Positions 46,605 through 47,888 of a DNA stretch of 55,858 nucleotides are shown here, one piece after another. The position numbers and the translations under genes were made by a program. The notes beneath the pieces are model-generated. The model did not search any database, was not told the origin of the DNA, and saw nothing but the letters and a program-made list of their open reading frames with translations. The number at the start of each line of letters is the position of its first letter. Position 1 is the stretch's first letter. Origin of the DNA: a virus (lineage: Duplodnaviria > Heunggongvirae > Uroviricota > Caudoviricetes); the IMG/VR virus record IMGVR_UViG_2660237930_000002, one strand, 5' to 3'.

Positions 46605-47315
46605 TCAGAAGAACCCAGCCTTGTCGTTGATGTACTCCGCGTGTGTCTGGATATCACGCAGGCATTTGCTCACACCGACGATGTAGCAGAACATGGTGGT
46701 CAGCTCCGCCGCCGCGCCCGATACGTCGTGCCCGTCTTCCTGTAACTGGTTCAGCAGATTCATCAGCAGTGAGTGCTCCGTCAGGCCGAGAACACCAGAC
46801 GGCGAATGAATCAGGCTACGGTAGCCGGGCTTCAGTGGGGCACTGTAGGTTTTGTTCTCTATCTTCATTGCCTGCATTACTGCTGACGCCGTGGCGTTGG
46901 CTACCTGGTCGGCAACCATCTTTATGCGTTCTTCCTGCGGTAGCGAGTTTTTAATGTAACTTCCGGTGCGGCGGATCTGAGGAAGAACCTCACCTGTAAC
47001 CCATTTGCGAAAGCGGTAGGGGATAGTGCCTGGTGTCACTGCGTCGCGGCAGCGGAGGATCAGTGTGTAGAGGCCTGACTCGGAGATGATGTTGATCTCT
47101 TTTACTCGGCTATCAAAAATTGCACGATGTTCATGCCCTATGTTGAACATAGACCTTTCATCATCATCCAGTTTTTCAAGTGCTTGGGTGACGTTTTGGA
47201 TACGCAGCGCACTACAAACGTCTTGGGCTACAAACCATGGTTGGCCATCGATAATGATGGAACGGATAGGGTTAACAGATTCAAATTTGAAGATGGCAGT
47301 TTGAGCATTAGCCAT
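46605..47315 (-). CDS. BRO-N domain protein / antirepressor-like
   Basis: N-terminus ...AIFKFESVNPIRSIIIDGQPWFVAQDVCSAL fits BRO-N; GGAG RBS. Confidence 0.65.
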   Translation of the reverse strand: MANAQTAIFKFESVNPIRSIIIDGQPWFVAQDVCSALRIQNVTQALEKLDDDERSMFNIGHEHRAIFDSRVKEINIISESGLYTLILRCRDAVTPGTIPYRFRKWVTGEVLPQIRRTGSYIKNSLPQEERIKMVADQVANATASAVMQAMKIENKTYSAPLKPGYRSLIHSPSGVLGLTEHSLLMNLLNQLQEDGHDVSGAAAELTTMFCYIVGVSKCLRDIQTHAEYINDKAGFF

Positions 47316-47584
47316 GGTGGTTATCTCCACTTAGTGATTTTAATCACCACCGCAACGCCAATTACTGGTGGTGAACTGGACAAGGTTGGCGTACCGGCCT
47401 AAGTGGTACCGGCGTCCTTTCGGACCCCTGCCCAGCCCACCATAATTCGGATATGGCTGTGCTTAACGCATAAAAAAACCACGTCTGGCGTGGTATGCGC
47501 CACTTAGTAACTCGGGACGCCAATCCCGGCACTGGATTTTGCCAGTACCCGATTACTATGGCACAAGAGGAGTGCGATGTAAAT

Positions 47585-47599
47585 TTACCGCAAAGGTAA
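47585..47599. promoter_or_regulatory. Operator TTACC-gcaaa-GGTAA at the start of the BRO gene leader
   Basis: Perfect palindrome immediately downstream of a predicted -10. Confidence 0.6.
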
Positions 47600-47627
47600 A
47601 TATAAGCACTCCACTTGGTAATTGCAA
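47599..47627 (-). promoter_or_regulatory. Predicted sigma70 promoter of the BRO gene (TTGCAA-17-TATATT)
   Basis: Minus-strand -35 TTGCAA (47622-47627), 17-nt spacer, -10 TATATT (47599-47604). Confidence 0.45.
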
Positions 47628-47630
47628 ACC

Positions 47631-47888
47631 TTATCTGGTTTGTTTTCGTAATTGTTCGGCACAATAGTCGAGATGTGTTTGCAGATCCTGCATAGACATC
47701 TGTGAGCTGGTGACGTAGTTAATCAGTGCAGTCAGTTCGGCAAGTGGGCCATCGACATTAAATCCATCCTTATCGAGATCCCGGAGTAATTTCATCAAGT
47801 GCGATCCCTCCACTAGTGATCTGACGCCTCCCGGCGTGTGAATCCTTTCGGTAAATCCGTCTTCCAGTGGATAGTGATACTGCTGCAT
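47631..47888 (-). CDS. Hypothetical protein paralogous to the C-terminal domain of the BRO protein
   Basis: GGVRSLVEGSHLMKLLRDLDKDGFNVDGPLAELTALINYV aligns by eye with SGVLGLTEHSLLMNLLNQLQEDGHDVSGAAAELTTMFCYI of the BRO protein. Confidence 0.45.
   Translation of the reverse strand: MQQYHYPLEDGFTERIHTPGGVRSLVEGSHLMKLLRDLDKDGFNVDGPLAELTALINYVTSSQMSMQDLQTHLDYCAEQLRKQTR

Follow-up and report, generated by a model that had tools for sequence, protein, structure and literature searches.

This study concerns positions 46605-47888 of a 55,858-nt stretch of viral DNA (Caudoviricetes; IMG/VR record IMGVR_UViG_2660237930_000002), the whole of which we call the window. The coordinates, taken from a preliminary description of the DNA, hold, with 47888 as the ATG of the smaller of two open reading frames (ORFs). 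The segment carries two neighbouring minus-strand genes, ant and the gene of a fusion protein that we call BRO::Ant. We propose that it is probably the lytic-switch region of a prophage, in which an SOS-triggered antirepressor (Ant) stands beside a second one (BRO::Ant) gated by RNAs of the P1 immI/Gifsy-1 IsrK type, both probably acting on the prophage repressor Rep. The evidence consists of protein homologies, matches to RNA families, complementarity and co-variation of the RNA pairing segments, a LexA box, and the distribution of a palindrome along the window.

Ant and the BRO::Ant fusion

The preliminary description had called the locus an antirepressor-type module, and both proteins support this assignment. 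The small one (85 aa plus stop; 47888->47631, minus strand) matched chain E of PDB entry 5D50, “Anti-repressor protein”, with an E-value of 4.1e-47 (residues 2-84 on 3-85), and the C-terminus of the larger one matched the same chain. The annotated ant product of the ε15-like Salmonella phage SPC32H is 88% identical to the small protein, and ant of SPC32H occupies the equivalent place, adjoining the tailspike gene. The equivalents in phages ε15 and phiV10 are gp19 and phiV10p24, and the homologues in general have 85-86 aa. Pfam contained no credible family for the small protein (a sub-threshold DUF724 match only), and NCBIfam contained no family for either protein. Judged by its sequence, the small protein is an SPC32H-type antirepressor Ant and, by likeness to SPC32H, would bind Rep and induce this prophage. 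In SPC32H, Rep acts as a tetramer on palindromic sites, and tetrameric Ant attaches to two Rep dimers, breaking up the DNA-binding tetramer (PMC9638917; PMC9986798; bioRxiv 2025.11.27.690993). A 126-aa form of ant (start 48011) was also considered and was rejected because the homologues and the crystal chain have only 85-86 aa and the longer frame would span both the LexA box and the palindrome upstream of the gene.

The LexA (SOS) box, AACTGTATATTTATACAGTA, was located at 47908-47927, 20 nt 5' of the ant ATG. It was the sole match in the window to the pattern TACTGTATATATATACAGTA with up to three mismatches (0 expected); it differs from the consensus at two positions and aligns with the box of SPC32H. 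SPC32H and SPC32N differ within this box (ACAG->AAAG), which is one of two differences across the stretch compared. The SPC32H Ant/Rep system is said to have been described by Kim & Ryu in 2013 and by Kim et al. in 2016, with PDB entries 5D50 and 5D4Z; LexA reportedly represses ant, and SPC32N is reportedly SPC32H with a point mutation in the LexA site. A repressor of the Rep type is also said not to be cleaved in the SOS response. The sequence upstream of ant could be read in 85 of the relative loci; its CTGT-N8-ACAG motif was perfect in 82 of them and had one mismatch in two. The box in the window is thus a predicted LexA-bound switch of ant. Two alternative promoter candidates for ant, TTGCAA-17-ACAAAT and TGGATA-17-TACTGT, were picked out by eye; both lie below the promoter-scan threshold.

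The fusion has 236 residues from its ATG (47315->46605, minus strand; the ORF listing also offers a GTG start at 47330). Its N-terminal part is a Bro-N domain (PF02498; residues ~17-112, 47267-46980), matched with 71.4 bits against a cut-off of 25.6 over profile positions 2-96 of 96, and Pfam gave no match beyond it. The protein also matched phrog_130, “anti-repressor Ant”, and phrog_450 was common to it and the small protein. A C-terminal domain shared by the two had been noted before and was confirmed by pairwise BLASTP, in which BRO residues 156-229 aligned without gaps to residues 2-75 of the small protein (42% identity over 74 aa, E-value 3e-19). Residues 155-231 (46853-46623) matched 5d50_E with an E-value of 2.2e-13. 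Structure prediction pointed in the same direction. The AlphaFold2 model of the C-terminal 87 residues alone had a predicted local distance difference test (pLDDT) value of 86, and its sole credible Foldseek match was 5d50_E (probability 1.00, template-modelling scores of 0.69/0.80, root-mean-square deviation of 1.5 Å over 67 columns, E-value 0.015). In the full-length model, with a mean pLDDT of 66, the linker and the C-terminus were poor, and Foldseek returned only SKI/Dachshund-like matches, to the Bro-N part; the linker between Bro-N and the Ant-like domain was helical at low confidence. Sequence and models indicate that the BRO protein is the derived form, in which an Ant-like domain has been joined to a Bro-N domain. 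The preliminary description had introduced the small protein as a free-standing paralogue of the C-terminal domain of BRO; the relationship stands, but the order is reversed, as the small Ant is the characterised form.

The Ant-like domain family is small and comprised 66 cluster representatives among 1.8 billion proteins, in which the domain was either free (81-95 aa) or C-terminal on proteins with a Bro-N or an AntA (PF08346) domain. The homology search with the C-terminal 116 aa of the BRO protein returned mostly fragments and was informative only for the AntA and Bro-N fusions. Two sub-types were evident, one consisting of the free SPC32H-type Ant and the other of the fusions together with some free forms of 95 aa; the difference between them is consistent over the last 30 residues, whereas 12 positions are invariant across the aligned fused and free forms. 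The protein P0146 is a natural hybrid that combines an N-terminal half of the free SPC32H type with a C-terminal half of the BRO-fusion type, and its sequence suggests recombination between the two paralogues.

A close relative of the fusion is ORF4 of Escherichia phage vB_EcoP_ZX5 (ZX5), with 85% identity over the whole protein and no differences from about residue 76 on. The first ~75 residues of the window's Bro-N domain (47090-47315) represent an allele unlike those of ZX5 and TL-2011b, the rest of the protein being identical, and this switch at about residue 75 implies a recombination joint inside the Bro-N domain. Overexpression of ORF4 lowered the prophage titre from 1e9 to 1e6 and the repressor transcripts by 75% (PMC9782041). 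Phage phiV10 carries the same BRO gene (phiV10p23, 194 aa; 4043-4722 of locus L001) with a frameshift inside the Ant-like domain, and the short phiV10p22 coding sequence follows immediately downstream.

The BRO protein could instead be a DNA-binding regulator of the Bro-N type, with an Ant-like domain that serves for tetramerisation only, or that forms mixed tetramers and thereby modulates or poisons Ant as an anti-antirepressor. Such a role would suit the tetrameric state of SPC32H Ant, which gives the shared fold a part in oligomerisation, as well as the resemblance of Bro-N to DNA-binding winged-helix/Dachshund folds. The consistent differences between the Ant-domain sub-families, the existence of the P0146 hybrid, and the tolerance of phiV10 for a truncated Ant-like domain are also in its favour. 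Nevertheless, we regard it as unlikely. Overexpression of the ZX5 relative moved the phage toward lysis with lower repressor transcripts (PMC9782041), and the isrK-C4 cassette that precedes the BRO gene elsewhere gates bona fide antirepressors, namely P1 Ant, Gifsy-1 AnrP and the P22-like ant of VT2-Sakai. Moreover, the Ant-like domain is also fused to AntA, which is another antirepressor N-domain, and the 12 invariant positions are shared by fused and free forms alike.

The IsrK/C4 riboregulator

The BRO::Ant gene is preceded, on the same strand, by two RNAs with Rfam matches. The small RNA IsrK (47472-47548) scored 63.5 bits with isrK (RF01394; gathering score 50), and the antisense RNA C4 (47364-47447) scored 66 bits with C4 (RF01695; gathering score 45) over model positions 1-87 of 87. 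The c4-a1b1 model (RF03163), which overlaps isrK, scored 43.4 bits against a gathering score of 46.7. IsrK corresponds to the a1/b1 leader of a C4 system: it contains a1, UUGGCGU (47523-47517), and b1, CUAAGUGG (47507-47500), and ends in an intrinsic terminator with a stem (47494-47478) and a T run. Within C4, b' (CCACUUAG, 47406-47399) forms a hairpin loop, followed by a' (ACGCCAA, 47392-47386); in the minimum-free-energy fold of -43.6 kcal/mol, the b' loop and the single-stranded a' are exposed. The leader of the BRO gene (47325-47361), recognised by complementarity and co-variation, carries the targets a2 (UUGGCGU, 47361-47355) and b2 (CUAAGUGG, 47334-47327). Perfect duplexes of 8 bp and 7 bp can be drawn between b' and a' and both b1/a1 and b2/a2. 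The b2 segment overlaps the Shine-Dalgarno sequence GGAG (47328-47325), the last base of which lies 9 nt before the BRO ATG, and 48 nt separate the end of C4 from that ATG.

Related loci numbered 87, seven from genome contigs and 80 from a viral scan. As the viral loci are nearly all from E. coli with identical Ant, most of the diversity comes from the RNA region. The 73 relatives with both RNAs and the window gave 74 loci with 61 distinct sequences. In this set, five b' types and four a' types occurred in ten combinations, and in all ten haplotypes both target sets co-vary with a'/b' and keep 7-9 bp of pairing; CCACUUAG and CCUUUGUAG are examples of the natural specificity types. This is strong comparative evidence that the pairing of a'/b' with its targets is functional. 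In one locus of the set (L053) and two loci identical to it, the interior of the first IsrK hairpin was inverted (CACTGGATTTTGCCAGTG vs CACTGGCAAAATCCAGTG), so that the stem is kept and the loop is flipped.

A promoter-like block, TTTACA-17-(TG)CATAGT (47555-47583, minus strand), is conserved across genera and is the likely P_isrK; its predicted start at ~47548 coincides with the 5' end of the IsrK model. If this base is taken as position 1, the G28/G31:C159/C162 pairing of Gifsy-1 would fit a1:a' within 1 nt. In VT2-Sakai, this cassette stands before an ant of the P22-like kind that is unrelated, and ~240 phage records carry the cassette; therefore, it is a portable regulator of antirepressor genes.

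Protein-coding alternatives for the region were considered as well. A 100-aa ORF (47664->47362) and the “ash family protein” coding sequence of ZX5 (1779-1892) were rejected, as they merely overlie IsrK/C4. The latter and “orf34” of VT2-Sakai (1863-2036), which lie over C4, are likely either mis-annotations or leader ORFs of the orf45 type known from Gifsy-1. Between C4 and the BRO gene, the sole ORF is a 20-aa one with a TTG start, ending 6 nt before the ATG.

Rep, its putative operators and the proposed switch

The 194-aa prophage repressor Rep is encoded at 18616-19200 (minus strand) and matched chain A of 5D50, “Repressor”, with an E-value of 3.5e-42 over residues 1-190. It has diverged from SPC32H Rep far more than Ant has from SPC32H Ant.

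The preliminary description had assigned each of the two genes its own palindrome, TTACC-N5-GGTAA. The sites are there: TTACCcgaaaGGTAA at 47965-47979, upstream of ant, and TTACCgcaaaGGTAA at 47585-47599, at the head of the isrK-C4-BRO operon and ~270 nt upstream of the BRO ATG. They are, however, not private to these genes. The window contained nine perfect copies against 0.01 expected from shuffles, and none of 100 shuffles reached nine; therefore, the motif is far beyond chance but genome-wide rather than specific to the module. Three copies lie in or beside the module, the third being TTACCaatcgGGTAA at 46505-46519, and the other six are at 18482, 18544, 19256, 21543, 25734 and 28897, with one-mismatch versions at 19304, 21605 and 25752. 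The rep gene is flanked on one side, that of the left promoter (PL), by two perfect copies (18482 and 18544), and on the other, between rep and a cro-like gene, by one perfect copy (19256) and the one-mismatch copy at 19304. The remaining copies stand before a DUF1064 gene, at the start of the small-terminase (TerS) gene, and before the portal operon.

SPC32H has ten perfect copies (12, 3175, 20013, 33528, 33604, 33666, 34390, 34407, 35972 and 36034), of which three flank rep on its PL side and two to three fall in the interval from rep to cro; further copies precede a DUF1064-like gene, TerS, the portal operon and ant. The occurrence of the motif at equivalent places in the two phages argues that TTACC-N5-GGTAA is most likely the Rep operator. 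We must also note that the copies before the terminase and portal operons occupy equivalent places in two phages with clearly diverged Reps. By analogy with C1 of P1, a precedent for a repressor with dispersed operators, this dispersal suggests a repressor that controls late operons directly.

Upstream of ant, the palindrome was perfect in 69 of the 85 relative loci, had one mismatch in 15 and was absent from one. Among the 61 distinct sequences, other genera included, almost all keep the arms of the copy at 47585-47599 intact. At both P_ant and P_isrK, the palindrome is followed by 1 nt and a -35-like hexamer (GGTAA-t-TTGCAA, 47958-47979; GGTAA-a-TTTACA, 47578-47599), which places its centre at about -44. 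This geometry is typical of activators and also of some repressors, and Rep may therefore either activate or repress these promoters. In two other cases the palindrome overlaps the -10/+1 region. It abuts a -10-like TAAAAT at 46505-46519, and at a further promoter-like site, TTGCAA-17-TATATT (47599-47627, minus strand), the final T of the -10 hexamer is the first base of the palindrome; this -10-like hexamer persists in all upstream sequence variants.

The same sites could belong to another regulator, such as a Cro-like protein or an activator of middle/late operons, in which case the antirepressor promoters would be under temporal lytic control. Palindromes before the TerS and portal operons are indeed unusual for an immunity repressor, and the abutment of the palindrome on the -35 hexamers of P_ant and P_isrK is an activator-like placement. 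We consider this quite unlikely. The palindromes form a cluster to either side of rep, as expected of left and right operators (18482, 18544, 19256 and 19304; in SPC32H, 33528-33680 and 34390-34451), dispersed operators have the P1 C1 precedent, and palindromic sites are the reported targets of the Rep tetramer (PMC9638917). Cro-type proteins normally share the operators of the repressor, so a Cro-like protein at these sites is compatible with Rep binding them too.

With Rep as the more probable ligand of the palindromes, the switch may be pictured as follows. In the lysogen, host LexA would shut the ant promoter at the SOS box (47908-47927). DNA damage would remove LexA, and the Ant then made would bind Rep and strip it off its operators, as in the 5D50 complex. 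Transcripts of the isrK-C4-BRO::ant operon would either end at the IsrK terminator or read through it. The b' loop and a' of C4 would pair with b2/a2 and cover the BRO Shine-Dalgarno sequence, leaving the fusion untranslated, and IsrK, whose a1/b1 is a second copy of the target, could titrate C4. Where C4 is missing or does not match the target, as on infection of a cell with a different C4 type, BRO::Ant would be made, and its Ant-like domain would inactivate Rep. As Rep operators, the palindromes would tie both promoters and the third neighbouring unit to the state of Rep.

Several points weigh against this proposal. Binding of BRO::Ant to Rep is deduced from the likeness of the domain, but the shared domain also tetramerises in Ant, so that the fusion might retain oligomerisation only. 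The overexpression data on ZX5 ORF4 are coarse (PMC9782041). The frameshift in phiV10 indicates that the fusion is dispensable for a viable phage, and SPC32H and ε15 lack the whole isrK-C4-BRO unit. On the RNA side, the c4-a1b1 score falls just below its gathering threshold, and no coupled ORF of the icd or orf45 type was found between C4 and the BRO gene. Finally, the distribution of the sites is the only ground for placing Rep on TTACC-N5-GGTAA, and a palindrome just upstream of the -35 hexamer fits activation as well as repression.

It is also possible, if rather doubtful, that Uetakevirus prophages have a two-key lytic switch, in which two paralogues with one Rep-binding fold report different inputs, the SOS response (LexA cleavage) freeing Ant and escape from the sequence-specific C4 freeing BRO::Ant. 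The five by four a'/b' types would then form a second, RNA-coded layer of immunity specificity, and through the palindrome at about -44 Rep might activate, instead of repress, the genes of its own antagonists, in an incoherent feed-forward by which induction is sharpened. If so, the RNA-coded layer would let phages that are otherwise homoimmune by Rep induce or overrun each other.

Genomic setting and comparison with known systems

From its sequence, the window represents a Uetakevirus prophage, similar to ε15 and phiV10, that resides in an E. coli chromosome. Positions 45600-48100 were 92-98% identical to phages ZX5, HEMP4, TL-2011b and phiV10, with the ZX5 match reaching 97% identity across 88% of the segment, and two complete E. 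coli chromosomes carried 46500-48000 at 100% identity. The Uetakevirus attachment (att) core ATTGAGTGGGAATGATT occurred once, at 13274-13290, and a second copy was not found in the window with up to one mismatch; the core is probably one of the prophage junctions, and the DNA on its left would be that of the host. A tRNA-Arg gene (anticodon TCT; 28498-28574, minus strand) lies between the terminase and portal genes, as it does in SPC32H.

Beyond the BRO gene, the third palindrome precedes a 108-aa ORF (46483->46157, minus strand; phrog_10654, no known domain) and the gene of a DUF2335 membrane protein (46230->45682, minus strand). TL-2011b has a YafO-family toxin gene in the slot that corresponds to this palindrome-headed unit (45682-46546), which thus resembles a region of variable cargo that shares this control. 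A hairpin at 45665-45683, rich in GC and with a T run on each strand, has the look of a bidirectional terminator and separates the DUF2335 gene from a convergent lipoprotein-like ORF (45171-45587, plus strand).

Loci from Citrobacter, Ca. Erwinia, Superficieibacter, Scandinavium and Klebsiella have the same order of ant, operator, isrK-C4 and a second Ant-domain gene. At least part of the module is present in 548 of 5426 complete E. coli genomes, about one in ten. In RefSeq, among the matches listed, ant appears as “hypothetical protein”, the fusion as “BRO-N domain-containing protein”, and the RNAs carry no features. The present assignment is therefore of value chiefly for annotation, since ~10% of complete E. 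coli genomes have some or all of the module, and for the co-varying C4 set, whose ten specificity haplotypes are a clean natural data set for RNA-based heteroimmunity. Identification of an SPC32H-type, SOS-controlled Ant would explain how prophages carrying ant are induced, and an Ant effector domain behind C4/IsrK offers a concrete, testable function for a protein of the BRO family, which is large and little understood. All components belong to described families, and the switch calls for no new principle. No description of two paralogous antirepressors paired under different controls was found in the literature searched, and this pairing is mildly new.

The module lies between the gene of an 824-aa virion structural protein (42513-44987; phrog_684) and the tailspike gene (48084-49907), in keeping with the preliminary description, which had likened this position to that of immI in P22-like phages. 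Adjoining the tailspike gene, ant does match the map position of P22 immI (mnt-arc-ant-sar). A strict immI of the P22 type, with ant under Arc/Mnt-like proteins and a sar-like antisense RNA, is nevertheless extremely improbable. No Arc or Mnt match was found by Pfam among the ORFs scanned in 45.6-48.1 kb, the only Pfam family found in the Ant/BRO pair was Bro-N, and the Rfam matches were to the C4 and isrK families, with none to sar. We therefore rejected the comparison with P22 save for map position. With isrK and C4 in front of the BRO gene, the regulatory logic is that of P1 immI and Gifsy-1 isrK-anrP.

SPC32H resembles the window in its Ant, a homologous Rep, the LexA box, the palindrome, the ant gene next to the tailspike gene, and the genome-wide pattern of palindromes. 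However, in SPC32H and ε15 ant stands alone, with ~50 nt to the next gene, where the window has the isrK-C4-BRO::Ant operon and a further operator-headed unit. ZX5 has its 85% identical “anti-repressor” ORF4 in an equivalent neighbourhood (PMC9782041). In the excerpt of its paper, there is no mention of an Ant-like domain, a LexA box or the RNAs, and the adjacent ant is annotated as hypothetical (PMC9782041).

P1/P7 immI, with its C1-controlled promoter, shares with the window the order of promoter and operator (a putative one in the window), a1b1, C4, a2b2 and antirepressor, as well as a C4 RNA that targets a ribosome-binding site. P1 and P7 are a heteroimmune pair in which natural a'/b' variants co-vary with their targets, as in the window set. 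P1 immI, however, has icd, which the window lacks, and b2 in the window covers the Shine-Dalgarno sequence of the antirepressor itself. Furthermore, the a1/b1 segment of the window ends in an intrinsic terminator (the IsrK form), unlike that of P1, and its protein is a fusion of Bro-N with an SPC32H-Ant-like domain, with no Pfam antirepressor domain detected, unlike P1 Ant. The latter is controlled by C1, C4 RNA and Icd (PMC8201110).

In Gifsy-1 of Salmonella, as in the window, IsrK and its terminator are followed, on read-through, by a conserved RNA segment (orf45, processed to STnc1160) and an antirepressor gene (PMC4825925). Experiments on Gifsy-1 have shown that IsrK base-pairs with the “orf45” region downstream of it and that it controls translation of anrP (PMC4825925). 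The G28/G31:C159/C162 pairing, which was probed experimentally, would correspond to a1:a' of the window. The stop of orf45 overlaps the start of anrP (AUGA coupling), whereas the window is without such an ORF; orf34 of VT2-Sakai is of that type. Lemire et al. (2011) reportedly described a separate antirepressor route in Gifsy-1, through the LexA-controlled GfoA. Gifsy-1 is thus a functional precedent for two antirepressors, with unrelated proteins, whereas the two antirepressors of the window are adjacent paralogues that would both be aimed at an SPC32H-type Rep.

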